A stretch of DNA of 61,457 bases, filler included. It is 6 parts of 6 records of this genome, joined end to end, with 100 filler letters (N's around TTAATTAATTAA, not from the genome) between each part and the next. Parts side by side here need not be neighbours in the genome. Positions count along the whole stretch, not along the records: positions 22,017 to 45,924 come from SRR31156797_29419; 5 more parts are not named here. The stretch is one strand, 5' to 3'. Position 1 is the stretch's first letter, and each line of letters starts with the position of its first letter. Positions 7,149 through 55,089 of this stretch are shown in pieces. The position numbers and the translations under genes were made by a program. A model generated the notes under the pieces. That model worked only from the letters and a program-made list of their open reading frames with translations, was not told the origin of the DNA and searched no databases.

Positions 7149-7159
7149 CAATATATACT

Positions 7160-8350
7160 CTACAGTCCGAGAACTGCTACAGTATCGTTTGCGATTTCGA
7201 GTTCTTCGTTAGTGGCAATGATCGCTACTTTTACAGCACCGTCATCATCACTAATGAAGGAGGGAGTTCTATCCCAATTATCGTTTTTATCTTTGTTGAT
7301 GGTGATGCCGAAGTTTTCGAGGCCGGAGAGGCAATTCTCACGGTAAATTTCGTCGTTTTCACCGATACCTGCGGTGAATACGATGGCATCTACACGGCCC
7401 AGTTCGAATGCGTAGGCACCGATGAACTGACGTACTTTGTGGCAAGCCATGTCCAAAGCGAGTTTAGCTTTTTCGTCGCCTTCTTCGATGCGAGCGTGGA
7501 TGTCACGCAGATCGTTGGAACCGCAGATACCTTTGAGGCCGGACTCGTTGGTAAGAGTAGCAACAACTTCAGCAGCACTCTGCTTGGTTCTTTCAGCGAT
7601 GAAACCTACGATTGCGGGGTCAATGTCACCACAACGGGTTCCCATAATAATACCACCAAGAGGAGTCAGGCCCATGGAAGTGTCGTAGCACTTACCGTTC
7701 TTAACTGCGGAAATGGAAGCTCCGTTACCGAGGTGAACAGTAATAATGTTGGACTCTTCAAGAGGCTTACCCAGGAGTTTAGCAGTTTCACGGGCAACAA
7801 ACTTGTGGGAAGTGCCGTGAGCACCGTATCTTCTGAGGCCCCAGTTTTCGTAGTACTCGTAAGGTACGCCGTACATGTAAGCTTTGGGTTCCATGGTCTG
7901 GTGAAAAGAGGTGTCGAATACGGCAACCTGTCTTACACCGGGAAAGAGTTCCATGGAAGTCTCAATGCCGATAACGTGACCGGGGTTGTGCAGAGGTGCG
8001 AGAGGGATACAATCGCGAATGCCCTGCAGAACTTTATCGTCGATTTCAACAGGCTCGAAGAAGAGCTCGCCACCGTGAACGATGCGGTGACCGATAGCTG
8101 CGATTTCAGCTTTGTCTTTTACAACACCCTTATCTGCATCAGTAAGCAGGTTGATTATTTCAATCATACCTTCCCTGTGAGTGGGGAAAGGCTGTTCGGC
8201 AGTGTATTTTTCACCGGTCTTGTAGCTGATGCTACCCATTTCTTCACCGATACGTTCAACAATACCGGAAGCCAGATCGTCACCGGTGCTCATGTCCAAA
8301 AGCTGGTATTTGATAGAAGAGCTACCAGCGTTAATTACTAAGATTTTCAT
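7160..8350 (-). CDS. ackA: Acetate kinase
   Basis: ILVINAGSSSIKY, GHRIVHGG, APLHNP, FDTSFH, HLGNGAS, FTAGIGEN. Confidence 0.97.
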   Translation of the reverse strand: MKILVINAGSSSIKYQLLDMSTGDDLASGIVERIGEEMGSISYKTGEKYTAEQPFPTHREGMIEIINLLTDADKGVVKDKAEIAAIGHRIVHGGELFFEPVEIDDKVLQGIRDCIPLAPLHNPGHVIGIETSMELFPGVRQVAVFDTSFHQTMEPKAYMYGVPYEYYENWGLRRYGAHGTSHKFVARETAKLLGKPLEESNIITVHLGNGASISAVKNGKCYDTSMGLTPLGGIIMGTRCGDIDPAIVGFIAERTKQSAAEVVATLTNESGLKGICGSNDLRDIHARIEEGDEKAKLALDMACHKVRQFIGAYAFELGRVDAIVFTAGIGENDEIYRENCLSGLENFGITINKDKNDNWDRTPSFISDDDGAVKVAIIATNEELEIANDTVAVLGL

Positions 8351-16033: not shown

Positions 16034-16133
16034 NNNNNNNNNNNNNNNNNNNNNNNNNNNNNNNNNNNNNNNNNNNNTTAATTAATTAANNNNNNNNNNN
16101 NNNNNNNNNNNNNNNNNNNNNNNNNNNNNNNNN
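16034..16133. other. Artificial contig spacer
   Basis: N44-TTAATTAATTAA-N44. Confidence 0.99.
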
Positions 16134-21916: not shown

Positions 21917-22016
21917 NNNNNNNNNNNNNNNNNNNNNNNNNNNNNNNNNNNNNNNNNNNNTTAATTAATTAANNNNNNNNNNNNNNNNNNNNNNNNNNNN
22001 NNNNNNNNNNNNNNNN
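21917..22016. other. Artificial contig spacer
   Basis: N44-TTAATTAATTAA-N44. Confidence 0.99.
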
Positions 22017-27129: not shown

Positions 27130-27775
27130 TGTGATTAAGGTTTTATTGGTTGATGACCACGATATAGTCCGTATCGGTGTGCGTAGTTTTCTGGGCAGTT
27201 TTGACGATATAGAGGTTGTCGGCGAGGCTGCCAACGGGCAGGAAGCTGTGGAAATGACCGCTGAACTTTCCCCGGATATTGTCCTTATGGATATGCTCAT
27301 GCCTGTCATGGACGGCATTCAAGCCATCCGTGAAATTCGGGATCGCAAGCTTTCGGGCCGGATAATAGCCCTGACCAGTTTTGCCACAGATGATAAGCTT
27401 TTTCCGGCAATAAAGGCTGGTGCTATGGGCTATCTGCTCAAGGATTCCACCCCGGATGAATTACTGGAAGCCATCCGCCGGGTGCATCGCGGTGAACCTT
27501 CCCTTGCCCCGGATATTGCACGTAAGGTGCTTTCCGAACTTTCTCATCCCGGTGAAGAGTCCGCAACGCCCACACCTGATCCACTTACCCCGCGTGAGCT
27601 GGATACTCTCAAGCTGGTTGCCAAGGGCAAAAGTAATAAGATTATTGCCGAAGAAATGTTTGTTAGTGAAGCTACCGTGCGTACTCATATGACTAGCATT
27701 CTGTCCAAGCTGCATCTGGCTAACCGCGTTGAAGCAACTCTTTATGCTCTGCGTGAGGGTATCGCTTCGCTCTAG
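27122..27775 (+). CDS. NarL/LiaR-family response regulator
   Basis: LVDDH, LMDMLMP, GYLLKD and LuxR HTH (LTPRE...SNKIIA...TVRTHMTSILSKL); overlaps the kinase stop; GTG start approximate. Confidence 0.95.
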   Translation: MSDVIKVLLVDDHDIVRIGVRSFLGSFDDIEVVGEAANGQEAVEMTAELSPDIVLMDMLMPVMDGIQAIREIRDRKLSGRIIALTSFATDDKLFPAIKAGAMGYLLKDSTPDELLEAIRRVHRGEPSLAPDIARKVLSELSHPGEESATPTPDPLTPRELDTLKLVAKGKSNKIIAEEMFVSEATVRTHMTSILSKLHLANRVEATLYALREGIASL

Positions 27776-27787
27776 AAAAGATGTTTG

Positions 27788-27820
27788 TAATCCGGTACGA
27801 AGTTTATTCGTACCGGATTA
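27788..27820. terminator. Hairpin between convergent genes
   Basis: 14-bp perfect stem TAATCCGGTACGAA/TTCGTACCGGATTA. Confidence 0.75.
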
Positions 27821-28615
27821 ATTGGCTTTCAGTACCTTCAGCGTGTATCTTTTTATGATGCGGTCTATCTTTCCACTTTTTGTCATTTTTTGAATAGCCT
27901 CTTCGAACTTAGGTAATATTTTTACATAGTTGCTTTTTTTGCTGATTAGCAAATGGAACGGAATGCATTCTATTGTCCCATTTGTCTGGATGATATCTTG
28001 TTCAAGGTTTTGTTGTTTTATTTCGATCCATGCCGCCATGGGCCATTCGATTACAACGTCTCCTCTTTTATGGAACAGCATTGGCCATACATTTTCAGGG
28101 ATTGAGGCTTCATGTGTTGGTATACCCAGAGGTTGAATGTTGTTTTTGTTCCATCCATTCCCGATATAGGTGATTACTGACAGGTCTGCTTCTTTTATGT
28201 TTTCCGGGATCTTAACCTTGTCTATGAGCTCCTTTTTGTGGTTTCCTTTATAGGTAAATAGCTGGAGATGTTGATGGTAGAATGGTGTTGGATGGGTAAC
28301 GGTATAGTCTGATCTTTCGTCAGTCGGGACAGTCATTATCCCGTCGGCTTTTCCTGTTTTTACGTAGTGCTGGCACCTGACCCATGGATATGATTCCCAC
28401 TTAATGTCCACATTTATACTGTCCATGGCTTCCGATACAATTTCATAAAAAATACCGGACATGGTTCCGTTTTTTTCTGTTTTGAAAAGTGGCCAGAAGT
28501 CATTGTATGTAATGACTATAGGGGGTTCTTGGGCGTGCACTGTGAATGCTGAAATTGTGGTAAGCGCACAGAACAGAAATATAATTTTAAGCACATATTT
28601 AAAATAGATCCTCAT
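27818..28615 (-). CDS. Orphan family 3 periplasmic substrate-binding protein
   Basis: Signal peptide, GIFYEIV, YPWVRC..VKTGKADG, SGKIDRII; start at the ATG with a GGAG RBS. Confidence 0.85.
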   Translation of the reverse strand: MRIYFKYVLKIIFLFCALTTISAFTVHAQEPPIVITYNDFWPLFKTEKNGTMSGIFYEIVSEAMDSINVDIKWESYPWVRCQHYVKTGKADGIMTVPTDERSDYTVTHPTPFYHQHLQLFTYKGNHKKELIDKVKIPENIKEADLSVITYIGNGWNKNNIQPLGIPTHEASIPENVWPMLFHKRGDVVIEWPMAAWIEIKQQNLEQDIIQTNGTIECIPFHLLISKKSNYVKILPKFEEAIQKMTKSGKIDRIIKRYTLKVLKAN

Positions 28616-28770
28616 CTTGTTTCTCCATTTCAATGAAACAATATTAAGTACGTTAACAATCGCAATTATTAATGTCTATATGTGCATGCAGGCGTGTTGT
28701 CACATGCGTTCTGCTGGAACTCTATGGCGCTAAGCGGATAATTTTTGAGGTTTATTTTTATCCGTCATTC

Positions 28771-28790
28771 TCTACGACAAATGTCGTGGA
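28771..28790. promoter_or_regulatory. Palindromic candidate response-regulator binding site
   Basis: TCTACGACA-AA-TGTCGTGGA (arms match 8/9); shares the core CATTTGTC with the 24961 site. Confidence 0.55.
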
Positions 28791-28929
28791 TGTTAAGGCC
28801 GTATGTTCATCTTTACTATGGATGTGTTTTGCTAATACCTTTGGCTATATAATTGGAAATGGATGAGGGCGAGTCTGAAAGCCCTTTTTGGTTAAATGAT
28901 AATTAACTAGCTTATATAAAAGGAATGCT

Positions 28930-29244
28930 ATGTTTTGCGGGGATAGTTTCATTCTGACTGCCCGTTTCAAAGCGCGGCCCGGAAACGAGGCTGAACTGAA
29001 GGAAGTTTTTGAAAGAGGGGTACGCGAATGTTCCGGGCAGGAAGGTCTGCTTATTTACAATTTGCATCAGGACAAAGATGATCCTGCCGTGTTTTTACTT
29101 TATGGGCATTTTAGTTCCGAAGCATCGTATCGTATGCACATGGACAGTGCACCTATCCGCAAGGTGTATGATACGGTTGTCGGTTTTGTTGAAGAAGGCC
29201 CTGAGATTAAGTTCTGGACTATGCTTGAAAAAGTAGGACAGTAG
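28930..29244 (+). CDS. ABM-family (putative quinol) monooxygenase
   Basis: ARFKARPG...EGLLIYNLHQDKDDPAVFLLY...HMDS. Confidence 0.85.
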   Translation: MFCGDSFILTARFKARPGNEAELKEVFERGVRECSGQEGLLIYNLHQDKDDPAVFLLYGHFSSEASYRMHMDSAPIRKVYDTVVGFVEEGPEIKFWTMLEKVGQ

Positions 29245-29313
29245 CTATGCTGGTTATTGCTTCTGTGGGATTTAAGATTGATAAGAAATTTATGGAATAA
29301 TTGGTGATTTTAA

Positions 29314-29805
29314 ATGGGAATTTCTCATACTCTATTTGGCTGCCATGTGGATGGCCGTCCTGATTACCTCCCCCTGGCTGGGGAACCGCGTATTAATAGC
29401 AAGCTTTCTCTTGCCGCTATTGAAATTGAAAAGGGCAGCGAGTTGTACGCCCGGATTATGGAAGAAGACAAGTTTAGTTTGAATTTGTTTTCCGGTAAGG
29501 TCTTAAACTACCTTGGTGTTGCAAATTCACTGTCTGAAAAGAAGAAATGCTATGACGGACGTTGTATCAGTTTTTATGGAAATTTTGATAGCGTACCTAT
29601 GCTGGAGGTCGCTCCTCTTGCCCTTGAATGCAGAATTTATGAAATCATTGATTTGGAAACATCTTCCTTTGTCATGGCCGAGATAACAGGCCGCTGGGTC
29701 AAAGGTGTTTGTTTCAAAAATGATAACTGTCCATCTATTGTTGAAACACAACCGATTCCTTTGTCTGATATGAAAGGGAAGAACACTATTGTTTCGGTTA
29801 TCTGA
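29314..29805 (+). CDS. Flavin reductase/flavoredoxin-like protein, divergent
   Basis: VDGRPDY, FSLNL, VPMLEVAPLALECRI, FVMAEI. Confidence 0.75.
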   Translation: MGISHTLFGCHVDGRPDYLPLAGEPRINSKLSLAAIEIEKGSELYARIMEEDKFSLNLFSGKVLNYLGVANSLSEKKKCYDGRCISFYGNFDSVPMLEVAPLALECRIYEIIDLETSSFVMAEITGRWVKGVCFKNDNCPSIVETQPIPLSDMKGKNTIVSVI

Positions 29806-29834
29806 ATATAACTAATTAAGTCTGTGGGGTAGAC

Positions 29835-30659
29835 ATGTTGAATTTCACGGTAAATGAAGAGCTTTGCATACAATGCGGCCTTTGCGCACAGGACTGTTTT
29901 TATGGACTCATTGAGTTGGATGAGTATCCACGGATTACAGATGAGCACAAATGTTTCCAGTGTCAGCACTGTCTAGCGGTCTGTCCAACAGGTGCTATTT
30001 CCATTCTGGAAAATTCCCCGGAAGATTCAGCCCCGCTTAAGGGCGGTCTTGCGGATGAGGATATGATTGCCACCTTGATCAAGGGGCGTCGCTCGATCCG
30101 GGCTTACAAGCCGGAGTCGTTGGAACCGGAAAGGATTCAAAAGCTTCTTGATGTTGCATGGCATGCTCCCACAGGCGTAAATTCACGTTGCGTGCACGTC
30201 ACTCTTATGGATGATCCTGATTCAGTTAAGAAGTTCCGCGATGAAATATATGACCGTCTTGAGGATGCCCTTGGAAAGGGGATTTCCGAGATTCCGCATG
30301 TGGTGAATCTGTTCAAGTTGGTCTGCCGGCAGATGAAGGAAAATAATATTGATGTGCTTTTCCGCGATGCACCCCACTTTGTAGTAGTTTCCGCTCCGCA
30401 AAGCGCCCCGAGCCGGACAGCAGATATGACGATTTTTCTTTCCTATTTCGAACTCATGGCTCAGTCCATGGGCATCGGCACTCTCTGGAATGGTATACTC
30501 AAGCGCGTAATTGAGTCTATCCTTCCGGACTTGAAAGAACGGCTCGGTATCCCCGAGGATCATGAACTAGGCTACGCCATGCTTTTCGGCAATCCTGCTG
30601 TTAAGTATCAGCGTACTGTCGAACGCGGTGAGGCGCGGGTCAGGCGTGTCGAGTGGTAG
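29835..30659 (+). CDS. Nitroreductase with N-terminal 2x4Fe-4S domain
   Basis: CIQCGLCAQDC, CFQCQHCLAVCP, RRSIRAY, APTGVN, GIGTLW. Confidence 0.93.
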   Translation: MLNFTVNEELCIQCGLCAQDCFYGLIELDEYPRITDEHKCFQCQHCLAVCPTGAISILENSPEDSAPLKGGLADEDMIATLIKGRRSIRAYKPESLEPERIQKLLDVAWHAPTGVNSRCVHVTLMDDPDSVKKFRDEIYDRLEDALGKGISEIPHVVNLFKLVCRQMKENNIDVLFRDAPHFVVVSAPQSAPSRTADMTIFLSYFELMAQSMGIGTLWNGILKRVIESILPDLKERLGIPEDHELGYAMLFGNPAVKYQRTVERGEARVRRVEW

Positions 30660-30681
30660 CAGTTAATATAGATTGGATTTG

Positions 30682-30720
30682 AAAAACCCGGTATTTCGAA
30701 ACGAAATACCGGGCTTTTTT
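30682..30720 (+). terminator. Intrinsic terminator
   Basis: CCCGGTATTTCG-AAA-CGAAATACCGGG followed by a T-tract. Confidence 0.85.
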
Positions 30721-30755
30721 ATTGCCCTCTGGTCCCAAACGCGTACTATGAAGTA

Positions 30756-31484
30756 ATGGAAAACTCCCGCAAATACATACAAGCTGCGCGTTATCTGGGC
30801 ATCGCAATTCTGACTATTCTGGTGTTGCAATCTTGTATAGTTGTTGTGCATGAATTTACGCACAGCACCATGGCCTATCTGTTAGGTGAGATAAAGAGTC
30901 CGCTTGATATCGTCTGGGGTAATCCGATCCTGATGACCGGCTGGGATGAGGGTGTTGATTATACGCATATCTTCGCAGAGGGTCACGACTGGCATGCTGC
31001 GGTTATTGGGTTCAGCCCGCTTGTCATGCATTCCATTGTGACCGGAATCTGTCTGTTTTTGATGAATATGCACAGGCTGCAAAATAAGTGGGTGTATCAT
31101 GTTGTTTACTGGCTGGCTGTGGTCAACCTCATGGAGCTTGTAGCATACATCTATATGCGTGCCTTTGCAGATCATGGAGATGTGGGGCGCTTTAACCAAG
31201 GTATGCATCTCTCCGCTTGGTGGGTGTTTCTGCTAGGGGGAGCATTCGTGACTTGGTTGCTCTGGCAGTTGTTCCGCTACGCCTTGCCGCGACTGCAGAA
31301 GCTTTTTGCTGGGAATAATACCGTATGCGCATGGACCATGCTGGTTCTGACTTCGTTTACTATTTATTTGTGGGGTAGCGGTATTCGTGTGATGGCTTAT
31401 GTGGACGGGCTGCAGAGTTTATTTGGAGTGGCTGGAGTTTTTATACTTATAGCAACCTTGATTGTGTTCAGAGTCCGATCTTGA
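30756..31484 (+). CDS. Membrane protein with HExxH motif (M50-like intramembrane metallopeptidase candidate)
   Basis: VVHEFTH at the end of TM1, a later DHGD motif, several TM helices. Confidence 0.6.
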   Translation: MENSRKYIQAARYLGIAILTILVLQSCIVVVHEFTHSTMAYLLGEIKSPLDIVWGNPILMTGWDEGVDYTHIFAEGHDWHAAVIGFSPLVMHSIVTGICLFLMNMHRLQNKWVYHVVYWLAVVNLMELVAYIYMRAFADHGDVGRFNQGMHLSAWWVFLLGGAFVTWLLWQLFRYALPRLQKLFAGNNTVCAWTMLVLTSFTIYLWGSGIRVMAYVDGLQSLFGVAGVFILIATLIVFRVRS

Positions 31485-31489
31485 ATAAA

Positions 31490-31522
31490 AATCCCCGCCG
31501 TTCGGTTTGAAGGGCGGGGATT
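31490..31522. terminator. Bidirectional terminator
   Basis: AATCCCCGCC...GGCGGGGATT between convergent genes; T-tract on the - strand. Confidence 0.75.
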
Positions 31523-31528
31523 GGTCTT

Positions 31529-32356
31529 TTATTTTAAATTGTTCCAATATTGAATTATGTGTCCACTATTGGGAATATCTTTTATAAGTTGTCCAAGTCG
31601 TATCTTATCGTGCTCATAGCTCTTTTTGTCTGTTTGGTTAGTCTGTGCATATTTACTGCTAGCACAATTTTTTATTTCTGATTCTAGAGCTGATTCATAT
31701 ACTTCCATTCTGTAATAATAAATAAGTAACTTGCATTCTGCTGCATATATTTTTAGGGGGATGGGACTTTCAGGATTACTTAAGACATATTCTAAGTCCT
31801 TTAAGTTTTTGTCAGACAGAATAGGCATTATTCTGTTCAAAGAAACACATTCTTTATCAAAACTTTGAGTACCCTTATGATAGATTGGTTTAGCGTCACC
31901 CAGTGCGACTAAACTTGGTAAAATCTTGAGAATCATCCTGTCGCGATTTGTAAAGTATTTTTCATTTTCTTTTGCATTTCTTAGTACATTGTATGCTTCT
32001 GTGCTGTTTCCCAGTTTCCAGTTTGTCAGTCCTTTCAATATAATATAATTACCATAGAGTTTGTGTTTCTTCAGTTCATTCTGGTCTTCTTCATTAATAG
32101 TTTTCAGGGTTTGTAATGTTTCGAAATATAATAAATTTGATTCATTTTGTAGTCCCACCGGAGCAGCAGACAGAGTTTCCATGCTGATATTGTTTATGCC
32201 GGATAAATGAGCATTCTGGTTATCAAGTTGTGCAGCTTTATTAAATGAATCCTGAGCTGTTCTAAGTTTATTTACTGTTTTGCATCCGCATAATGCAAAA
32301 AGAATCACCATTGCCAGAACAAATGAAAGTTTAAACTGCCTTCTTCTGTTTTCCAT
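31529..32356 (-). CDS. Hypothetical helical lipoprotein
   Basis: RRR + hydrophobic stretch + LCGC lipobox; TPR-like segment ILKGLTNWKLGNSTEAY. Confidence 0.8.
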   Translation of the reverse strand: MENRRRQFKLSFVLAMVILFALCGCKTVNKLRTAQDSFNKAAQLDNQNAHLSGINNISMETLSAAPVGLQNESNLLYFETLQTLKTINEEDQNELKKHKLYGNYIILKGLTNWKLGNSTEAYNVLRNAKENEKYFTNRDRMILKILPSLVALGDAKPIYHKGTQSFDKECVSLNRIMPILSDKNLKDLEYVLSNPESPIPLKIYAAECKLLIYYYRMEVYESALESEIKNCASSKYAQTNQTDKKSYEHDKIRLGQLIKDIPNSGHIIQYWNNLK

Positions 32357-32365
32357 GAGTGACTC

Positions 32366-34186
32366 CTAAGGTAGGGCTTGTAATTGGGTTTTTGCGATTT
32401 TTTTAAGTTCAACAAAATCGACTTTGTTTTTCATTTTTATGTCTTTCATAAAATTGGTCATGACTTTTTCCAATGCCTTAACGGCTTTTGGTGAAGCTTT
32501 AGATTCAGTTAGTTCAGTCATAAGGATGTTTATTACTTTTTGAAGGATTTCATCTCGGCAAATCCGCCATTTTATTGTTTTATCAGAGCTGTTAAATATC
32601 GATGATATGATTGCATCGATCGCGGCAGCTGCAATGATTTTCCCATCTTCATCATAATATTCAAGAAGTTCTTGGCGTAAGGCGATTCCCTTGATTACCT
32701 CTGTGATTATATTTGCTGATGTCTTTGCTGATAAGCTTGCTTTTTGGGCTTTAAGGCAAGTTATCGTTTGGCCCAAAGCCAGGTTCAAGGCGCTTTTGAA
32801 ATATTTATTTTCTCCGGTAATCCATTCGGGGTTAGTTTTGATTTCGTCACATATGGTTTCGACAACTATTAGCATTTCTGCATGGGTGAAATCAGGTCTC
32901 CAGTATGGATAGTCGGGATTGCTGTCTGTGAGAGCTTTTATGGTTGCCTGTGTAGCTATGAATAATATGTTTTCCTGTGGTGAGCGTTGTTCGTTTGGCC
33001 AGAGTAGGTCTAGGTTGTCGCCTGTTTTTTCTAATATGATACTGGCTATTTCCGGTAGCATGCCATCGTTAAACAGAGGCATATTTGTTCCGGCTAGCCC
33101 CCCTGTAATTTCAGAGAATAGTTTGTTGATTTTATCATCTGTATTGGTGATCAGTTTAGGATGTTTACTAATAACAGATAATGCTGTTCTGGTCAGGCGT
33201 TCCGCTCCTGCTTGACTGAAAATAGGTTTGAATTCGATGCTTTCATTGCCGATCATTAAATCAAGAACATCTCCTCCTATTTTTTGAGCCATTTCTTGGC
33301 TGGCTTTTCCTTGTATTCCAAGAAAGCTGCCGGGATCTGAAATAGCGGTGCGGGCTGTTGCATCCAGGATTCCACGAAAGATGAGTTCACCCCATTCCTC
33401 CATTTCCAAACGTTTATTACGTCTTGTGGTTTCGTCAGTATAGTTTTGATTGATCTCTTTGTTACGTTTGGTGACCAACTCAGATACTTTTGTTGCTGAA
33501 TTTCCTATGAGTATATGTACGTTCTTGTTGTTACCGAATACTCCAGAATTTGCGGAAACAGTTTCAAGGGTTGCTGTGAATAATTGTACGGGAAGATTAT
33601 CCAGTACTTCTGTGCTAAAATTAATCTGATCCAATTCGTTGATGAACGAATGGATTAATTTTCCTTCTGAGGTATTTGTATTAAATAGCTGCGGATTTAG
33701 CTGTAGGAAGTCTATACCTACTTCAACTATTGCCCCAGCTACACGTTGTATTGATGATGAAGCTGAGTACCCTTGTTCCCACCCTTCAACAGCGTAGAGG
33801 GCTCCAACACTGATTGTGTCACTGACACCACATTCTTCTCCATTCCAGTAACCTAATTGTGCTTTTGCTCTTGCTGCAAGAGTTTTTAGTTCTTCTTTTT
33901 CAGTTAAGCTGAAATTCTCTAAAGGTTTTTTAAGTTCGGCAACTCTGGACCATGGTTTTGTAGTGCTGCCTTTTTTTTGTTTGACGAATTGAGCCCCTTC
34001 GCAATCATCGTTTTTATAGAAGAAAAGCCAAGCTTTAGTGTTCGTCATTTCAGTAGGCAAATCAGGCAGCGGCAATACTAATTCCCGGTTACGGGTAATA
34101 TCCACATAACTCTTGTATCCGGCCTCCCCGATCTTAATGGAGGCCCGTATGGCGAAGATAATTATTGTTGCGGTATCCATTATCAT
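32366..34186 (-). CDS. Hypothetical 606-aa alpha-helical repeat protein
   Basis: Long ORF coupled to the upstream gene (TAATG); no recognised domain; recurring hxxxxLxxhxx(N/H/D)Pxhh motif. Confidence 0.85.
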   Translation of the reverse strand: MIMDTATIIIFAIRASIKIGEAGYKSYVDITRNRELVLPLPDLPTEMTNTKAWLFFYKNDDCEGAQFVKQKKGSTTKPWSRVAELKKPLENFSLTEKEELKTLAARAKAQLGYWNGEECGVSDTISVGALYAVEGWEQGYSASSSIQRVAGAIVEVGIDFLQLNPQLFNTNTSEGKLIHSFINELDQINFSTEVLDNLPVQLFTATLETVSANSGVFGNNKNVHILIGNSATKVSELVTKRNKEINQNYTDETTRRNKRLEMEEWGELIFRGILDATARTAISDPGSFLGIQGKASQEMAQKIGGDVLDLMIGNESIEFKPIFSQAGAERLTRTALSVISKHPKLITNTDDKINKLFSEITGGLAGTNMPLFNDGMLPEIASIILEKTGDNLDLLWPNEQRSPQENILFIATQATIKALTDSNPDYPYWRPDFTHAEMLIVVETICDEIKTNPEWITGENKYFKSALNLALGQTITCLKAQKASLSAKTSANIITEVIKGIALRQELLEYYDEDGKIIAAAAIDAIISSIFNSSDKTIKWRICRDEILQKVINILMTELTESKASPKAVKALEKVMTNFMKDIKMKNKVDFVELKKIAKTQLQALP

Positions 34187-34788
34187 TATGCATCTCCTTC
34201 GGGTGTGGCTGGTGTTGCTTCTGATTCTCCTTTGAGCTGGAGAATTTCTTCCTTCAAGCGTTTGTTTTCTTTTTTTAAATTATCCTCACCCTGTGCCTCA
34301 AGGAAACGCTTTTCCCGTTGTTTAGGATCACGCAACTTAAGCTTTTCGAAGAGGGTGTTCATGCTGCCGCTTCCTCCGGCCAAGAGCATGGAGGTCAGGA
34401 AAAAATCAATGTTGGCGTTTACAGGGTGATTATTGCCAAAAAGGATGGTGACTAACTTTTGAACTATGTCCAGATCAGCAGATTTACAGAAAATGAAAAG
34501 GGTGACGACGATTATGGGGGTTTTCCAACCTTTGTTGTAGGTGTGTTTGATGAAGAATCGCCAGTCGAAAAGGGTGGTGAATGAGACTTCTATGAAAGTG
34601 GCGAGGATGAAGGTTTTGAATAGTAAGGTAAGGGCTTCGTCATAGATTTGTTGGTCGTTGGCGTTTGATGCCGCTAGAGTTGCATTGTTTGAGGCAAGAG
34701 CTGGAATTGTGCAAAGTAAAATAGCCAGCATTGTGATCCAGAAACTTGGTTTTGAAATTTTTGATATGACTCCCATAAAACCTCCCAT
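34186..34788 (-). CDS. Hypothetical membrane protein, holin-like
   Basis: Signal-like N-terminus, about 3 further TM segments, DLDIV...FLTSMLLAGGSGSMNTLF, charged coiled-coil tail. Confidence 0.7.
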   Translation of the reverse strand: MGGFMGVISKISKPSFWITMLAILLCTIPALASNNATLAASNANDQQIYDEALTLLFKTFILATFIEVSFTTLFDWRFFIKHTYNKGWKTPIIVVTLFIFCKSADLDIVQKLVTILFGNNHPVNANIDFFLTSMLLAGGSGSMNTLFEKLKLRDPKQREKRFLEAQGEDNLKKENKRLKEEILQLKGESEATPATPEGDA

Positions 34789-35058
34789 TTAAATCGCTAA
34801 GTGAGTCTCTATAATCATCTGGTGGTTATTCTTAAAAAACTTTTATTCTATGAGCTGTCAATAGGCTTTCATATGCATTTTAGTGGCATTGTTTAAGTTT
34901 AATAAATGTCATAAATATGGCCAGTTATGTTTAGCTAGTGTCAGACTGGACAGTGTCAAGCTGGGTGAAGACCGTATTTTAACTAAGAATAAAGATAAGC
35001 TTGGATTGGAAGTGAGTTTATATGTTTTTTCAAGTTTAACTTTTGAAAAGAGGTTTTT

Positions 35059-35475
35059 ATGCGGAAAGTGGAATTAATACGTATTGAATCGACTGATGAG
35101 GCCACGCTTGGGGGGCTGTTGGTGGATGGGAAATCCATATGCTGGACACTGGAAGAACCGTGGCGTGGAAACCAAGAAGATATCTCGTGCATACCAGCGG
35201 GCCGATATTCGTTGAAGCTTGAATATTCGCCTTCAAAGAGACGCGAATTGTGGACGGTTAAAGACATTTCGGGCCGATCCTATGTGCGAATCCATAAGGG
35301 GAATACAGTTGATGATACTGAGGGGTGTCCGCTTACAGGAACTAAGCCCGGTTATTTGGACGGGAAGCGGGCAGTACTTGGCAGTCGGGAAGCTTTTAAC
35401 GAGTTTATGAATGCCATGAGTGGAAGTAGAGAGGGAGTGATTGAAATATCGTATTCATCAGTGGGGTTCTGCTAG
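35059..35475 (+). CDS. DUF5675 family protein (YkuD-like putative peptidoglycan peptidase/endolysin)
   Basis: TLEEPW..N...SCIPAGRY...YSP...RIHKGNT..DTEGCPL, with an intact His/Cys pair. Confidence 0.88.
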   Translation: MRKVELIRIESTDEATLGGLLVDGKSICWTLEEPWRGNQEDISCIPAGRYSLKLEYSPSKRRELWTVKDISGRSYVRIHKGNTVDDTEGCPLTGTKPGYLDGKRAVLGSREAFNEFMNAMSGSREGVIEISYSSVGFC

Positions 35476-35588
35476 ACTGTCTTGGTTTAGGAATAATTTT
35501 GCAGTTCTGAGAAAGTTTGCTGCAGTCTAATTTATCTTGATTTACAGCATGGTAAGTAAGAAGATGGTTCGCAAATACAGGGGGAATT

Positions 35589-36482
35589 ATGAATAAAGTT
35601 AAGTGGGGATCTGAAGAGAAAAAACAGTGGCTGGAACAGGCTGTCATTGAAAAGAGTTACCAGCAGGATGTTTTGGATAGAATTTTTGCTTTGCCTGATT
35701 CATACCGCAGAGAAAAGTATGGTCGGCTTTCATATGATCAGGAACGTTATCCGATATATGCACTGCTTTCAAAGGATTGGGGTGAGAGTAAACCCACGGC
35801 TTTGATCACAGCCGGAGTGCATGGGTATGAAATCGGGGGCATATATGCAGCTCTTGAATTCTTGGAGACAACAGCTTTGGAGTACGCGGATAAGTTTAAT
35901 CTTGTAGTTGTCCCGTGTGTCAGTCCTTGGGGATATGAGACCAATAATCGTTGGAATCCATATACCGTTGATCCTAACAGGTCTTTTTGCGGTGAGAATA
36001 AAGCTGAAGAGTCTACGTTGCTGAAACAGTTTGTGACAACGATTCCCGGTGATATAGCAGTGCATATTGATTTACATGAAACAACTGATCGAGACAAAAC
36101 TGTTTTTCGCCCCGCACTTGCTGCAAGAGACGGAGTTGAGTGCGCTGTCGAAGGTATACCGCAGGGTTTTTATCTTGTTGCTGATGAGGGTAGACCTGAG
36201 CTTCCTTTTCAGGAAGCGGTTATACGTTCGGTGGAAGCGGTTACTCCCATTGCAGATAAGGATGGGGAGGGCAATATTCTCGGTAAACCTGCAATTGCCC
36301 ACGGAGTTATTTATTACCCTATGCGTGAGTTAGGGTTAAGTGGAACCCTGACAAATGCACGTTTTCACACAACCACTGAAATATATCCTGACGGTGACTG
36401 GATGACTCCCAAATCAAGTGTTGAGGGACAGATCGCTGCCATCAGGGGCGGGTTGGATTACGTAATAGAGTATTTGGGATAG
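35589..36482 (+). CDS. M14 family metallocarboxypeptidase (AstE/MpaA-like)
   Basis: GVHGYE, DPNRSF, IDLHET, TTTEIYPD. Confidence 0.88.
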   Translation: MNKVKWGSEEKKQWLEQAVIEKSYQQDVLDRIFALPDSYRREKYGRLSYDQERYPIYALLSKDWGESKPTALITAGVHGYEIGGIYAALEFLETTALEYADKFNLVVVPCVSPWGYETNNRWNPYTVDPNRSFCGENKAEESTLLKQFVTTIPGDIAVHIDLHETTDRDKTVFRPALAARDGVECAVEGIPQGFYLVADEGRPELPFQEAVIRSVEAVTPIADKDGEGNILGKPAIAHGVIYYPMRELGLSGTLTNARFHTTTEIYPDGDWMTPKSSVEGQIAAIRGGLDYVIEYLG

Positions 36483-36509
36483 TGGGAATAAAACGATTTA
36501 TCTAAAAAA

Positions 36510-36544
36510 AATCCCCTTGTCATATTGATTACGACAAGGGGATT
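36510..36544. terminator. Bidirectional terminator
   Basis: AATCCCCTTGTC...GACAAGGGGATT between convergent genes. Confidence 0.75.
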
Positions 36545-36550
36545 AATTTG

Positions 36551-37570
36551 TTACAGGGGGCGTTCCTTCAAACCCAGCACTTCCTGAATTTTAGGTTCTG
36601 ATAAATTTTCTTTGGTGATTAGATACACATTGGTCAAGGTTTCAGCTGGTATCTTTTTCTCTCTGGCAGCCATTGCTGCCTGAGTCACAGCAATTCTTCC
36701 TATCTCATACGGGTCCTGCGCTATACCTGCGGCGATTTTTCCTTCCTTAATGTCCTGAATCATTAGCGGGTCAGGGTTGAACGCAACAAAGCTAAGACTG
36801 TCAAGTTTGTTTATCTCTCTTAATGTCTTAAGTAATATTTCGCTGCTGCTTTCATTGAAGCCGACAACGGCATTGATATTTTTTTTCTTGTTTGGATTAT
36901 CGTTACCATACATGGCTAAGCGAATTTTGGAGGAGCCTTTTTTTGGGTCCTCACCTACATAAATGGCTCTACTAATTTTAAGCCTTGAGTCAGATTTCTT
37001 CAGTTGGTCCTTGAAACCATTAATCCTGCTATTTACTGGGGAGTTGCCTTTGATAAACATACCCAGAACCACTGTTCCTGAATCTTTTAGTTCTTTTTGC
37101 AGGAACTCAGCAGCCAGCTTTCCACCCTCGAAGTTTTTTGAATGCACGTATCCTGTTTTTGCATTGCCGAATACTTTTGAGACCATTTGAATGATGGGAA
37201 TTCCTTTGCGCATGGCTTTTTTTATGGATTTCTTCATTCTCAGGCTATGTACTGGAGAAATTACTACCGCATCTATTTTGTGTTCTATGCACCAATCAAC
37301 TTTAAGTTTTTGTTCCTTAAAGTCTCCAAGTCCTGCGGGGCTGAGCCAATAAATTTTGATATTACCGTCATCGGTAGCGGCTTTAACTACGCCTCTTTTC
37401 AATAGGTGCCAGAAGTCCAGATCTCCACGTTCCGGGATTACCGCAATGTTGAGTTTTTTGGGCACGAGAGAATCAGTGGCTTTTGCCGGCTGCGTTACGA
37501 GCAGGGCTGTGAAAAGTAAAATGAATATAGTGATGAATTTGATTCGAGGCATGAAGTTGTGCTGTTTCAT
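36551..37570 (-). CDS. Orphan sugar-binding periplasmic protein (RbsB-like)
   Basis: Signal peptide, DFWHLLKRG, IDAVVISP, NFEGGKLAA, RINGF, QDPYEIG. Confidence 0.88.
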   Translation of the reverse strand: MKQHNFMPRIKFITIFILLFTALLVTQPAKATDSLVPKKLNIAVIPERGDLDFWHLLKRGVVKAATDDGNIKIYWLSPAGLGDFKEQKLKVDWCIEHKIDAVVISPVHSLRMKKSIKKAMRKGIPIIQMVSKVFGNAKTGYVHSKNFEGGKLAAEFLQKELKDSGTVVLGMFIKGNSPVNSRINGFKDQLKKSDSRLKISRAIYVGEDPKKGSSKIRLAMYGNDNPNKKKNINAVVGFNESSSEILLKTLREINKLDSLSFVAFNPDPLMIQDIKEGKIAAGIAQDPYEIGRIAVTQAAMAAREKKIPAETLTNVYLITKENLSEPKIQEVLGLKERPL

Positions 37571-37811
37571 CCGATCTCCTTAAATAACTGACGGGTTTAG
37601 TTTTTACGAAATGAGTGTAACTCTAAGGAATTCTTCAATCAAGGGTAGATAATGTTAATTATGTTTGTGAGCAAAAAAAACTACTATTTCTTTTTGTCTG
37701 GTAAAAGATTATATAAGGATATCCGCTATAGTGGGTATCATGCAGGGGGGCTACTTTTGGTATTAAGTTTTGGGGGAAACAGGGCTGGTGGAGGTTTTGA
37801 AGGTGCAAAGC

Positions 37812-38558
37812 ATGAAATATCAGGCGATTTGGATCGTTGTAGCTTTTTCAATAATGGTTCCATATTTTGCAAAAGACAGTGTTGCTGAGAACTACCGTGT
37901 TATGCGCTATATCGAATCTTTTCCGCCATACTATTTCCCGTCGGGCAGTCCTCAGACGGGCATTGTAAAAGATATTTTTGCTGCACTTTCTAAGGAAACC
38001 GGAGATACATTTGAGTTTGTTCGGCTTCCATATAAGCGTGCCTTATACCAGTTTGTGACAGGCAAAGTTGATATAGAACCCATGGCCAATCCTGCATGGA
38101 GGAGTCATTCTTCTTTGCCGGGACATTACAGCATACCATTTGGTGTATCAGAGCAGATTGTTTTGTTTAACGCTAAATATGCACAACCAGACCTTTTGCC
38201 GCAAGGTTTGGTGGGTAAGACGGTAGGAACTGTTACGGGCTACACATATCCTGTATTCGGTCCATATTTTGCGGATGGACGGATAAAGGAATATCGACTC
38301 AAAAGTGAAAATAAGCTTATCCAGATGCTGATCGCTGATCGTTTGCATCAGGCAATTATGAATAAAGATTTTGCTCTATATAGAATTAAGACTGAGCAAC
38401 TTAAAGATCAATTGATCGTAAGTAGGCCGTGTAATTCAGTTCCTATGATGATTCGTGTTCACCCCAGCAGGAGAGACGCACTCCCCAAGTTCAATGCAGC
38501 TATCAAGAAGCTTTTGGATGATGGCACTATCGGAAGAATATATGGGCGATATCGGTAG
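37812..38558 (+). CDS. Orphan family 3 periplasmic substrate-binding protein
   Basis: FPPYYF, GIVKDI, LPYKRA, GTVTGYTY, DGTIGRIY; start at ATG 37812. Confidence 0.85.
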   Translation: MKYQAIWIVVAFSIMVPYFAKDSVAENYRVMRYIESFPPYYFPSGSPQTGIVKDIFAALSKETGDTFEFVRLPYKRALYQFVTGKVDIEPMANPAWRSHSSLPGHYSIPFGVSEQIVLFNAKYAQPDLLPQGLVGKTVGTVTGYTYPVFGPYFADGRIKEYRLKSENKLIQMLIADRLHQAIMNKDFALYRIKTEQLKDQLIVSRPCNSVPMMIRVHPSRRDALPKFNAAIKKLLDDGTIGRIYGRYR

Positions 38559-38563
38559 GGCTA

Positions 38564-38836
38564 TTACTTTTCTATCCAGCCCCGAGTCCTCATGCATTTA
38601 TCAAATTCTTTGGTTCTGCTGTAATTAGCAGAAAATATGGCTCTGTTAGTTGTATTGGTTCGCGAGCGGTCTTGATTTCCGATTTGAAGCTTTTCAGTTG
38701 TCCTCTTTTCACATTCTTTTCTATCTTTTTTGAATTCTGCTTTAGCGACAGCCGGATCAGGGTAGTTGTCGTTATGCCAAGAGGAGCAACCTCCTAGAAT
38801 TATTAGTAGTGCTGTAAGGGTGGCAATTTTTTTCAT
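38564..38836 (-). CDS. Small hypothetical lipoprotein
   Basis: MKK...LGGC lipobox; DRKEC...FDKCMRTRGW. Confidence 0.8.
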   Translation of the reverse strand: MKKIATLTALLIILGGCSSWHNDNYPDPAVAKAEFKKDRKECEKRTTEKLQIGNQDRSRTNTTNRAIFSANYSRTKEFDKCMRTRGWIEK

Positions 38837-38865
38837 ATTAAATCTCCGTTAGAATAGTAGGCAGA

Positions 38866-39495
38866 TTAGTTACCGGAAGGAGTAAAGCGTTTTGTTAGAA
38901 AATTGCTGAGACCCTGATTTACGCCCTGACCGCATTTAGCAAAGGGGCAGCCAAGTTCGTAAGGAACTTCGATTGGGTCAGGAGAGCCGGAGTATATAAC
39001 TGTCTCTGTTTGTCCTTTGCTTTCTTTCACAAGCAATTCCACAACCAGAAAACATGTGTTCGGTCCGCTCTTAGCGCGTTCAATTTGGGGGGACCAAGTA
39101 TTCACGACCACAGGATATCTACGAAATGAAGGCCCATAGGACAGAGAGTCGCTAAACCCGACTTGTTGCTGTGCGCCATGAGCGGCTACTTTTGGGGAAA
39201 TTGAACCCACACGTGCTTCAATCAGGTAATCAACTTCACCGTTAGGCTGATATTTATAGCCCATCCCGGCTAATGTTTGAATCATGTTTTGCGCAATAGG
39301 AAGCGATCCGGTTTCGACCCGTTCCGGGCTGCCGCTTTTTTTCAACTGGAAGAGAACTACACGCACATTAAACGATCCAAGAGCAGGATTGAAAGCAGAT
39401 AAAGGTGTTGGTGGGGTAATGCTACGAGTTGAGCATCCGCCCATGCAGAGGATAGAAAATATTACAATTGAAATGAGAAGCAGCTTTTTACACAT
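38866..39495 (-). CDS. Hypothetical lipoprotein (DUF4136-like)
   Basis: Start moved to MCKKLL (39495), giving a lipoprotein signal ending MGGC; QTLAGMGYKY...VDYLI pattern. Confidence 0.7.
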   Translation of the reverse strand: MCKKLLLISIVIFSILCMGGCSTRSITPPTPLSAFNPALGSFNVRVVLFQLKKSGSPERVETGSLPIAQNMIQTLAGMGYKYQPNGEVDYLIEARVGSISPKVAAHGAQQQVGFSDSLSYGPSFRRYPVVVNTWSPQIERAKSGPNTCFLVVELLVKESKGQTETVIYSGSPDPIEVPYELGCPFAKCGQGVNQGLSNFLTKRFTPSGN

Positions 39496-39580
39496 AATGA
39501 TCCTATGGAGATTGGGTTTTAATTGGAAAGATCCCTTTATGGGGTCTGTTATTAAGGCAAATTTGTCAATGGGAACTTTA

Positions 39581-41485
39581 TTACGGGCAAAGACCATCTG
39601 CGCGTGCTGCCTTGATTAACTTGCAATTGTCCATTTTACAGGCCCGGTGGGCGTCCTTGCAGCCTAGCTCCTTTTGGCCTGATAGAAGATAGCTCAAACC
39701 ACGGCGATGGTAAGCGTCTACATAGTCGGGATTAATTTCAATTGCTCTGTTAAAATCTTGAATTGCTTTTTGATACTGATCGAGATTGGAGTAAGCTATT
39801 CCCCGGTTATAGAAAGCCTTTGTGTATTCAGGGTTGATTTCAATAGCCTGACTGTACCCTTCAATTGCACGTTGGTACTGTCCTAGTACAGCATATACAT
39901 GGCCACGATTATGATGCGCCTTTGCATAGTCAGGGTCCAGCATGATGGCTTTAGTAAAATTGTCTATCGCCTTTTGATATAAACCCATATTGAAGTGGAC
40001 TAGACCTAGATTATAATAAGCGTGAGTGTACTTGGGATCAATTTCAAGAATGCGATGATAATCATCCAAGGCTTTTCGGTACTCCCCGATATTAAGATAT
40101 ACACTACCGCGGTTGCTATAGGCGACGGTATCTTTAGGATTAATTTCTAAAGCCCGGTTGTAATCATCTATTGCGCGCTGCGGTTGGCCTAGATAATCAT
40201 ATTCAAGGCCGCGATTGGTAAAAGACTTATAATCGTTTGGATCAAGCTGAATGGCTCGGTTATAGTCAGCAATGGCTTGTTCATGCTGTCGGATATCTGA
40301 ATAAACTTTTGCCCGATTATAGTACGCGTTACGATTTTCAGGGTTCAATTTGATAGATTTGTCGTAGTTCTCGATGGCTTGTTGATGTTGTCCTATTCTG
40401 GCATAAATCAGCCCGCGATTTGTATATGATTCGGGATCATCTGGATCAAGCTTTATAGCACTATTTAAGTCTTTTAGCCCCATGTCTAATTGCCCAAGGC
40501 TGACATAGTTGGTGCCTCGGTTATAATACGCTGCAGCATAGTCAGGATCGAGTTCAATTGCCCGGCTGAGATCTTCAGCAGCACGCTGGAACTGTTTCAG
40601 TCCATTATATGCAACTCCACGATTTGTGTATGCTACGGGATTTTCGGGGTCCAGTTCAATAGCCTGACTGAAATACGCAATAGCAACATACGGATTGGAA
40701 TATTTGCCATCTTCCCATAACGCTGAGGCTTTTAAAATCCAACCCTCAGCCTCCAATGCCTTTCCTGCCTTGGCAAAATCCTGCTTTATGGTTTGTTCTT
40801 CTTCTGGGTGTTTCCTTAGTTTGCTGTTTGTCTTTTTCAGCTCTTCAATCCTTGCCAGCAGGCTTTGGTTTTGTTCCTGAACTTTTTCGTACTTTTTTAA
40901 AAGTTCACGGTCAGAAAGTACTTTCTTAACCCGCTCATCAAGGACGGAAGGATCAACCACGATTTTTACTACCGCTTCCATGCAGAAGACATTGCCGTCC
41001 ATAAATTGCCGTTCGCTGATTACTTCGGTCTTAAGCACTCCAACAGCCAGTGCCATAATTTCATTCTGTGCAAGACGTCCTTCCTTAACCAAAGTCATGG
41101 TTTCAAGGTAGGTTCCGGCTTCTTCCAGAGCATCACGTTTGGCCCGGGCGACAGCAAATTTTCGTGCTTCATCTGGTGAAATCTGTCCCGTTACATGCTG
41201 GCGCACGGTCTTTTCTACGACGGATTTAGTGCTGCTGAGATATACTGGTTCGTTAGCCTTTTGAGTCTTTGATTCAACTGCTGTGCCAGCTGCTGTTTGG
41301 GGTTGTTCACTGACGTCCGAGGATTCGTGACTTGTGTCTAGAGCCTTTTGTTGTGCGCCAGGGGGGGCAACCTGTTTTATTGTGGATGGTTTATTTTTTT
41401 CAGTCTGATGCTGGGCAGCACATCCCAAGAATAAAGATAGGACAAATATCAATAGCACCGATCGCAACATTAATTTCATGGTCAC
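39581..41485 (-). CDS. TPR-repeat lipoprotein
   Basis: FLGC lipobox; about ten 34-aa repeats AYxNRGxxYxxLGQYxxAIxDYxRAIELxP. Confidence 0.93.
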   Translation of the reverse strand: MTMKLMLRSVLLIFVLSLFLGCAAQHQTEKNKPSTIKQVAPPGAQQKALDTSHESSDVSEQPQTAAGTAVESKTQKANEPVYLSSTKSVVEKTVRQHVTGQISPDEARKFAVARAKRDALEEAGTYLETMTLVKEGRLAQNEIMALAVGVLKTEVISERQFMDGNVFCMEAVVKIVVDPSVLDERVKKVLSDRELLKKYEKVQEQNQSLLARIEELKKTNSKLRKHPEEEQTIKQDFAKAGKALEAEGWILKASALWEDGKYSNPYVAIAYFSQAIELDPENPVAYTNRGVAYNGLKQFQRAAEDLSRAIELDPDYAAAYYNRGTNYVSLGQLDMGLKDLNSAIKLDPDDPESYTNRGLIYARIGQHQQAIENYDKSIKLNPENRNAYYNRAKVYSDIRQHEQAIADYNRAIQLDPNDYKSFTNRGLEYDYLGQPQRAIDDYNRALEINPKDTVAYSNRGSVYLNIGEYRKALDDYHRILEIDPKYTHAYYNLGLVHFNMGLYQKAIDNFTKAIMLDPDYAKAHHNRGHVYAVLGQYQRAIEGYSQAIEINPEYTKAFYNRGIAYSNLDQYQKAIQDFNRAIEINPDYVDAYHRRGLSYLLSGQKELGCKDAHRACKMDNCKLIKAARADGLCP

Positions 41486-45924: not shown

Positions 45925-46024
45925 NNNNNNNNNNNNNNNNNNNNNNNNNNNNNNNNNNNNNNNNNNNNTTAATTAATTAANNNNNNNNNNNNNNNNNNNN
46001 NNNNNNNNNNNNNNNNNNNNNNNN
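45925..46024. other. Artificial contig spacer
   Basis: N44-TTAATTAATTAA-N44. Confidence 0.99.
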
Positions 46025-54989: not shown

Positions 54990-55089
54990 NNNNNNNNNNN
55001 NNNNNNNNNNNNNNNNNNNNNNNNNNNNNNNNNTTAATTAATTAANNNNNNNNNNNNNNNNNNNNNNNNNNNNNNNNNNNNNNNNNNNN
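54990..55089. other. Artificial contig spacer
   Basis: N44-TTAATTAATTAA-N44. Confidence 0.99.

Follow-up and report, generated by a model that had tools for sequence, protein, structure and literature searches.

A rare pair of a helical protein and a lipoprotein, carried on an inserted cassette and found beside envelope-lytic enzymes in other lineages

Results

A compact operon next to a DUF5675 gene

We examined a 61,457-nucleotide (nt) stretch of DNA, hereafter the window, which N runs and base composition reveal to be at least six contigs joined, and in which only positions 22017-45924 belong with the finding reported here. This 23.9-kb contig, bounded by N runs, contains an operon of three minus-strand genes that encode a membrane protein of 200 amino acids (aa), a 606-aa protein without a signal peptide and a 275-aa lipoprotein, which we refer to as mem200, big606 and lipo275 (Table 1). 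An initial annotation had joined these three to a divergent DUF5675 gene in a single candidate system for secretion, toxin release or programmed lysis, composed of a holin-like protein, a peptidoglycan peptidase, a lipoprotein and a 606-aa cargo. The comparisons described below locate the conserved unit elsewhere: it is the pair of big606 and its lipoprotein, brought to this site on a cassette that landed next to DUF5675.

What had been described at the locus itself is borne out by the sequence. The three genes are tightly coupled, with the stop and start codons of the mem200 and big606 genes overlapping as TAATG at 34186 and a gap of only 9 nt (32357-32365, GAGTCACTC) between big606 and lipo275, where an AGGAG motif spans the stop codon. 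The terminator said to close the operon is present as a hairpin (CCCCGCC-13 nt-GGCGGGG, a 7-bp GC stem with T-runs on both strands) nine bases past the lipo275 stop; a consensus terminator scan overlooked it, its 13-nt loop being longer than the scan's maximum of 8 nt. The same hairpin also terminates the convergent gene on the other side, and an equivalent follows that gene at the cassette-free site of a relative (locus L052), and it is therefore a property of the chromosomal backbone rather than cassette cargo. The operon is indeed AT-richer than the genes around it, with a G+C content of 0.389 (31529-34788) against 0.462 (25066-31484) and 0.432 (35059-41485). Capsid, terminase and integrase families, which the initial annotation had also reported missing, were found in none of the 22 open reading frames (ORFs) scanned on the contig, a scan that excluded small ORFs and the segment at ~43.4-44.4 kb. 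The genes that share the contig encode a GAF histidine kinase with a response regulator, DapB, a nitroreductase-ferredoxin protein, binding proteins, a TPR protein and a CitMHS transporter.

Table 1. Genes and features of the locus, in window coordinates
Feature	Position	Strand	Basis
mem200, 200-aa membrane protein	34186..34788	-	ORF calling
big606, 606-aa signal-less all-alpha protein	32366..34186	-	ORF calling
lipo275, 275-aa lipoprotein	31529..32356	-	ORF calling
DUF5675, 138 aa, C82/YkuD-like, signal-less; divergent from operon	35059..35475	+	Pfam match
M14/AstE-AspA-like metallopeptidase, resident, co-directional with DUF5675	35589..36482	+	Pfam
242-aa membrane protein, resident, convergent with operon	30756..31484	+	ORF calling
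Cassette, ~3.4 kb: three genes and ~160 nt of own upstream region (34789-34947); extent approximate	31520..34947		Empty-site alignment with L052
Bidirectional terminator-like hairpin, backbone feature	31493..31519		Sequence; counterpart at L052 empty site

The operon is an insertion and DUF5675 a resident gene

The divergent 138-aa ORF is a clear DUF5675 member (PF18925, 127.7 bits against a cut-off of 26.7, E 2.4e-37, 113 of 114 profile positions) that also matches phrog_1501 (E 1.2e-28). It has the anticipated His/Cys motif (H79-x10-C90) and no N-terminal hydrophobic stretch, and the family is structurally C82/YkuD-like according to a preprint (10.64898/2026.04.11.717860). Its place in a four-gene system did not hold up. 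In all six same-genus relatives without the operon, a DUF5675 gene with 66-87% identity is encoded at this very chromosomal location and in this orientation, an arrangement that the initial annotation itself had named as refuting its proposal. The gene order at these sites is nitroreductase-(242-aa membrane gene)-DUF5675-(M14-like)-binding protein, and at L052, for example, it runs kinase, regulator, ABM, flavin reductase, nitroreductase, 242-aa membrane protein, DUF5675, M14-like and binding protein. The 242-aa membrane gene adjoins DUF5675 directly in the operon-less loci L052, L053 and L056; in the window, L001 and L037 the operon lies between these two genes, and in L035, which has no such membrane gene, it lies between the nitroreductase gene and DUF5675. 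When the empty site of L052 is aligned with the window, homology on the left stops at ~31517 and resumes on the right at 34948, and synteny of the chromosomal genes on either side extends to 10 relatives.

The two families also differ in their distribution. Within the genus, DUF5675 is found in 23 of 26 genomes and the 606-aa family in 5 of 26. Three of five further genomes that carry the pair (G163, G718 and G002) have no match to the DUF5675 profile, and in the remaining two the copies are remote from it, with two copies more than 100 kb away in G232 and one copy on a different contig in G600. The three genes thus constitute a horizontally acquired cassette of ~3.4 kb at a variable spot between two resident genes. 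Because DUF5675 is at the same site in six of six operon-less relatives it is a pre-existing neighbour and not a cassette member; it is a bystander whose adjacency arises from where the cassette landed.

Two further features of this site deserve mention. The M14/AstE-AspA-like gene follows DUF5675 on the same strand in L051, L052, L001 and L035, and the two may form a resident, cassette-independent pair of signal-less enzymes acting on peptidoglycan peptides. The gap upstream of DUF5675 is an insertion hot spot: L037 (6041-8229) holds two unrelated genes of 368 and 359 aa in addition to the cassette, which they separate from DUF5675, and L054 (10100-12270) has ~2.2 kb of other DNA there.

big606 and its lipoprotein form an invariant pair

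We collected 34 non-redundant loci from scans of genomes and metagenomes and from individual genomes. In 26 of them the next gene after the big606 homolog encodes a homolog of lipo275, and the other eight end in or just after the big gene. Five loci added to these gave the same picture, with a lipo275 homolog in four and, in the fifth, an unmatched 266-aa lipoprotein at the same place. The big606-lipoprotein pair is therefore the invariant core, and it is strictly conserved.

lipo275 has a signal peptide with the lipobox LCGC, followed after the cysteine by the motif LRxAQxxFNxAA. Across the family alignment G24-C25 is invariant and the motif is kept. The protein is probably TPR-like, as suggested by a match to TPR_8 (13.3 bits, below the cut-off of 25.7) and by its language-model neighbours in the ESM Atlas, which are TPR clusters (scores of 0.91-0.93 with fewer than 170 shared features) and serve as weak leads. 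A profile search of PDB sequences gave E>=0.1 at best, PADLOC, searched with five window proteins, yielded a single sub-threshold match, of lipo275 over 36 residues (PDC-M10B, 14 bits, E 0.011), and the protein matches no spanin family in PHROG.

The family of big606 is large and matches no known family. A word-indexed search returned 17 close homologs, and a profile search of 1.84 billion representatives returned 764 at E<=1e-3 (340 at E<=1e-30), each being the representative of a cluster at 50% clustering. None of 17 family members tested has a Pfam domain, and none of the three cassette proteins matches Pfam, PHROGs, NCBIfam or PADLOC above noise. An AlphaFold (AF2) model of big606 from an alignment of 105 sequences consists entirely of helices, with a predicted local distance difference test score (pLDDT) of 87.7 and a predicted template-modelling score (pTM) of 0.69; it supersedes an earlier, poor model from 18 sequences (pLDDT 56.5). 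In a Foldseek search the model has no match at E<=1e-3 in PDB, and it has none at that threshold in BFVD, where tape-measure rows reach a template-modelling score of only ~0.1. A wide search with VIA-align peaked at Z 8.8 with designed helical repeats and prenyltransferase fragments, which is within the background that the tool gives for helical proteins. A profile search of PDB sequences found no match and the ESM Atlas no usable one.

The layout of big606 comprises a conserved N-terminal helix with an LPLP motif, an N-domain, one unit of a ~255-aa repeat and a C-terminal cap. Conservation is highest at the extreme N-terminus, where a helix that always starts within the first ~10 residues is followed by L-x-L-P-L-P. 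This helix is moderately hydrophobic (mean hydropathy 1.55 for residues 1-19, Eisenberg <H> 0.41, moment 0.36), and the protein has no signal peptide. Longer members of the family carry 2-5 copies of the ~255-aa unit (profile positions ~295-550), and the family accordingly falls into length classes of ~600, 855, 1115, 1385 and 1637 aa that correspond to one to five copies. Proteins above 800 aa make up 46 of the 147 new ones (P0018-P0164) among the 150 matches listed, and no short protein with the N-terminal domain alone was found in the family. A complex prediction for big606 and the mature lipoprotein, run without alignments, scored 0.00 and counts neither for nor against binding. The big606 homolog of L038 (8600-10402, genome G195) contains one in-frame TAA and is possibly a pseudogene.

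Membrane proteins are optional companions of the pair

Hydropathy analysis of mem200 reveals an N-terminal signal-like hydrophobic segment (15-33) and two further strong segments (52-70 and 91-109), followed by a charged, coiled-coil-like C-terminal tail of ~54 aa. This topology of three hydrophobic segments and a charged tail fits a holin and is not specific to holins. This protein, which the initial annotation called holin-like, matched no family, of holins or otherwise, in Pfam (E<=1), PHROG (E<=0.1), NCBIfam or PADLOC. Only five homologs of mem200 are detectable, in a subclade centred on Maridesulfovibrio, and the gene lies upstream of the pair only in L001, L035, L037, L036 and L034. These represent three contexts, to which a remnant can be added: in L005 (8330-9244) and L004 (7170-8086) a decayed copy precedes an intact pair, with only the tail (LFSKLKIRDP...) still in frame and the membrane part riddled with stops. 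mem200 is an optional, lineage-specific third component.

A second membrane family (A5, 348-480 aa) adjoins the pair in L002 (12684-14126), L065 (9684-10781) and L066 (6884-7930). Its members have hydrophobic segments at the termini, a long central helical part and a conserved C-terminal motif, G-x-PFW-x-D-x-x-K-x-LT, and match neither Pfam nor PADLOC. A kinship between mem200 and A5, suggested by a likeness of motifs noticed by eye, was rejected (hhalign probability 0.2).

The pair is rare and lies beside envelope-lytic enzymes in other lineages

The pair is rare and sporadic, occurring in ~1% of sampled genomes: 6 of 401 in a class-wide sample, 4 of 401 in a phylum-wide sample, and 4 of 83, 3 of 201 and 1 of 21 in the orders of G718, G002 and G600, respectively. 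Queries with the window protein and one distant member found no copy in collections of phages, plasmids and viral contigs. Eighteen divergent members and neighbours compared with 5027 PADLOC models gave no match at E<=0.01, and the open-access literature that we searched contained no description of the pair.

Grouping the loci by their flanks gave ~18 contexts, and in several of these an envelope-lytic enzyme is the immediate neighbour. Downstream of the pair and on the same strand are a PG_binding_1 and GH46-like protein in L036 (21-nt gap), an SH3, M15_4 and GH19 protein in L061, a VanY and GH19 protein with two PG_binding_1 domains in L062, an NlpC/P60, SH3 and GH19 protein followed by an S8 protease in L063, and a Lipase_3 protein in L060. 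In L036 and L060-L063 the gap between enzyme and pair measures 21-162 nt. A further Lipase_3 gene lies divergently upstream in L038, and a pYEATS-TPR-S-patatin protein is encoded upstream in L021. In L034, mem200 is the only such companion and tRNA synthetase genes lie downstream; a 448-aa ORF at this locus (6278-7624) was discarded as an antisense frame of a histidyl-tRNA synthetase-like gene.

The enzymes beside the pair have no N-terminal hydrophobic stretch, with a maximal 12-residue hydropathy of at most 0.95 against 2.5-3.4 in controls. G600 has no Lipase_3 match other than the neighbour, and G195 has one other, weaker match. The GH19 neighbour is the sole GH19 match in each of G718, G854 and G815. 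The L036 enzyme has one copy in G163, and no counterpart was found in four other genomes that bear the cassette. As these enzymes are often single-copy in the genome and yet stand next to the pair, their adjacency is non-random. For the L062 enzyme, 1384 phage records contain a matching endolysin or lysin A gene, and the L036 enzyme resembles peptidoglycan-binding proteins in seven Thermus phage records; the hydrolase-bearing and lipase-bearing loci lie outside recognisable prophages. Altogether these data support an association of the core pair with enzymes that attack the envelope. The tabulation of neighbours that the initial annotation had proposed as a check therefore has a divided outcome: a lipoprotein is always downstream where the DNA extends far enough, and hydrolases occur in four loci and lipases in two, whereas mem200 is confined to the Maridesulfovibrio-centred subclade and DUF5675 is absent or unlinked in the five further genomes. 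Its broader idea of lysis or export across the envelope layers retains this association. The particular four-gene system with DUF5675 is not supported, and neither is a cargo role for big606.

Some of these neighbourhoods contain conflict-related genes. A gene pair encoding SLOG (LSDAT_prok) and SLATT_1 proteins lies near the pair in L061 (6201-7634 and 81-866, G718), where another ORF fuses a DUF772 transposase domain with a fragment of the phage terminase gpA. In L021 (6801-9764, 12816-14786 and 17240-21022) the pair stands between the pYEATS-TPR-S-patatin protein, which has C-terminal membrane segments, and a second TPR-S protein, and a giant DUF4062-TPR protein and insertion sequence (IS) transposases in the vicinity complete the context of a conflict island. 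L009 has a cyclase-STAND gene and a patatin gene near the pair. Other loci sit among housekeeping genes.

Other features of the window

The minus strand at 38564-41485 carries two small lipoprotein-like genes without Pfam match (90 and 243 aa), 3' of a gene for a 634-aa protein with ~10 TPR repeats whose 3' end overlaps the 243-aa gene; both small genes are kept in L001, L037, L052 and L056. The N runs of the window are at 6268-6367, 16034-16133, 21917-22016, 45925-46024 and 54990-55089, and the G+C content jumps abruptly there (0.24-0.60).

Discussion

Because the pair lies in other genomes with signal-less hydrolases, lipases, a patatin or a second membrane family, we infer that big606 and its lipoprotein could be the constant part of a module that breaches the envelope through a swappable damaging partner, in the service of controlled lysis or release or of abortive defence. 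We favor this model tentatively and rate its chances as somewhat short of even. We envision a scenario in which big606 would be held on the cytoplasmic side of the membrane, through its own N-terminal helix or through the cytoplasmic tail of mem200, the lipoprotein would act at the outer layers, and the output would be envelope damage. The damaging partner would be interchangeable (a membrane protein, an endolysin-like hydrolase or a lipase), and in the window cassette this part would fall to mem200. In such a model big606 would be core machinery rather than cargo, with the supposed holin optional and DUF5675 outside the system. A bolder version, which is possible but on balance doubtful, would make the pair the core of a phage-independent machine that crosses the envelope and deploys signal-less endolysin-like hydrolases, lipases or pore-forming membrane proteins to bring about controlled lysis, protein release or abortive defence, with big606, its length fixed by repeat number, as a cytoplasmic scaffold or length-setter; several phyla would then share a lysis or secretion family that is new.

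Several observations weigh against an envelope-breaching role. All three cassette proteins lack known relatives, and their proposed functions are read from sequence and gene context. big606 lacks a signal peptide and its constant partner is exported, which leaves their communication unexplained where no membrane partner is nearby. The window cassette itself carries no enzyme, and in about one third of the ~18 contexts the pair has no lytic enzyme and no membrane protein as its neighbour; such contexts include two soil clades, in which the pair adjoins Opp permease genes or a polysaccharide deacetylase gene, in some cases together with VapBC, as well as L022 with a sugar ABC operon and L064 with only a convergent NamZ gene. 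The three GH19 loci (L061-L063) all come from one order, so that the evidence for a hydrolase link comes from about two independent lineages, to which Lipase_3 adds two more. Finally, the neighbourhoods sampled represent only ~40 of the 764 family clusters.

The same observations have to be set against other explanations. The four-part system first proposed, in which a holin, DUF5675, a lipoprotein and a 606-aa cargo would carry out type-10-like secretion or lysis, is highly improbable. Its four genes are adjacent, mem200 combines three hydrophobic segments with a charged tail, and DUF5675 is both signal-less and, according to the preprint, C82/YkuD-like (10.64898/2026.04.11.717860). There is also an anecdotal complementarity, in that G163 lacks DUF5675 and has a cassette hydrolase, while in the closest clade the cassette has no hydrolase and adjoins DUF5675. 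These points have to yield to the resident position of DUF5675 in six of six operon-less relatives, its wider occurrence in the genus (23 of 26 genomes, compared with 5 for the 606-aa family), the two unrelated genes that part it from the cassette in L037, its distance from the pair in G232 and G600 and the lack of a match in G163, G718 and G002. mem200, for its part, matches no holin family and has decayed in L004/L005 while the pair is intact, and the element that never varies is neither the enzyme nor the membrane protein but the 606-aa protein, as would suit a part of the machinery better than a cargo. It is very unlikely, too, that the loci are islands of interbacterial weapons in which the hydrolases and lipases, or the 606-aa protein, are effectors and the lipoprotein their immunity protein. 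Antibacterial effectors typically include signal-less wall hydrolases, class-3 lipases and patatins, and immunity lipoproteins are often encoded just upstream. The lipoprotein gene is indeed directly upstream of the enzyme gene in five loci and the distribution of the pair is island-like; however, a single lipoprotein family accompanies unrelated enzymes (M15, NlpC/P60, GH46-like and Lipase_3) as well as enzyme-free loci, and the lipoprotein therefore tracks the 606-aa protein and not the enzyme. The 606-aa protein moreover has no variable end like that of polymorphic toxins, only changes in repeat number, and the flanking regions scanned showed no genes for a secretion apparatus, a search that did not extend to whole genomes.

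A role for the pair in maintaining or remodelling the envelope, as a non-lytic scaffold that organises or regulates wall- and lipid-modifying enzymes without killing or export, is unlikely but has more to draw on. The TPR-like leads for the lipoprotein recall TPR lipoprotein adaptors of wall hydrolases, the neighbours include recycling and modifying functions (NamZ, a polysaccharide deacetylase, M14 peptidases and a PLD/cardiolipin-synthase-like gene beside L036), and several flanks consist of housekeeping genes. Rarity, sporadic occurrence, AT-richness and insertion would nonetheless be unusual for a maintenance function, and the linked hydrolases are signal-less, multi-headed and endolysin-like rather than of the exported housekeeping type. 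Quite unlikely is mere coincidence, by which enzymes and membrane proteins would simply share variable islands with a pair that has another function. The contexts do vary, with VapBC, SLOG-SLATT and TPR-S/patatin conflict genes and transposases among them, and chance demonstrably explains the adjacency of DUF5675 in the window; yet single-copy Lipase_3 or GH19 genes stand immediately beside the pair in five genomes, and the short same-strand gaps in L036 and L060-L063 are not what co-residence alone would predict.

An envelope-breaching module built on the pair is thus the reading that we carry forward, and it would have consequences beyond this locus. The family is large (764 representatives) and wholly unannotated, with a strict two-gene core and a testable link to signal-less wall hydrolases and lipases. 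If the core does allow enzymes to reach or breach the envelope, it would represent a new lysis, secretion or suicide system alongside the holin-endolysin-spanin cassettes and would account for the use of some signal-less lytic enzymes outside prophages. The locus is also a cautionary case, since its most suggestive neighbour, DUF5675, is adjacent only through the landing site of the cassette.

How does the pair compare with known systems? Some conflict and defence systems are built from a constant core with swappable effectors. Like such systems (TPR-S/patatin and SLOG-SLATT), the pair is rare, island-like and AT-rich and combines a constant core with variable partners that damage membranes, lipids or the wall, and some of its loci sit among them (L021, L061 and L009). 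Unlike them, the pair gives no PADLOC match beyond the weak, sub-threshold one of the lipoprotein, has no NTPase, nuclease or nucleotide-signalling domain, and includes a conserved lipoprotein, which is unusual there. A second parallel is colicin-type release, in which a signal-less helical protein is freed by means of a lysis lipoprotein that activates a phospholipase. Here too a signal-less, largely helical protein of ~600 aa is encoded beside a lipoprotein, and lipases are linked to the pair in some relatives. The lipoprotein is, however, about five times larger than its colicin counterpart, there is no immunity gene, toxin domain or plasmid copy, and the helical protein is conserved along its whole length, where a colicin would be modular and carry a killing domain. 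As no component belongs to any described family, we rate the cassette, judged by its sequences, as falling outside the known kinds.

Type 10 secretion provides a further comparison. It is represented by clusters of holin, endolysin and spanin genes outside phages, with components of 10-15 kDa, as in the lytic cassettes of Yersinia entomophaga and Serratia marcescens (PMC10847048). None of the components of our cassette shows homology to the holins, spanins or endolysins known from those systems, and no gene in it resembles an i-spanin. The cassette lipoprotein (~250 aa and probably TPR-like) and mem200 (200 aa) are both larger than the 10-15 kDa components given for Yersinia (PMC10847048). The invariant element is a helical protein of 600-1640 aa for which lysis cassettes have no counterpart, the membrane protein and the enzyme are optional in the cassette family, and lipases can take the place of the hydrolase. 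No endolysin-type hydrolase is encoded within the window cassette (31520-34947), the sole nearby wall enzyme being the resident DUF5675, and the cassette is not a type 10 member. As in type 10 and other non-phage lysis cassettes, the genes lie outside a prophage, as judged from the 22 contig ORFs, the syntenic flanks and the phage and plasmid collections, and they would offer one component for each envelope layer, with a small multi-pass inner-membrane protein that bears a charged tail and a lipoprotein at the outer layers. Relatives of the cassette add a signal-less, endolysin-like hydrolase (M15/VanY, NlpC/P60 or GH19), so that an endolysin-type enzyme does form part of the cluster in L036, L061, L062 and L063. 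By analogy, we speculate that the cassette may work in the manner of a type 10 cassette while standing apart from that class, with big606 and its lipoprotein as the constant core to which different means of breaching the envelope could be joined.

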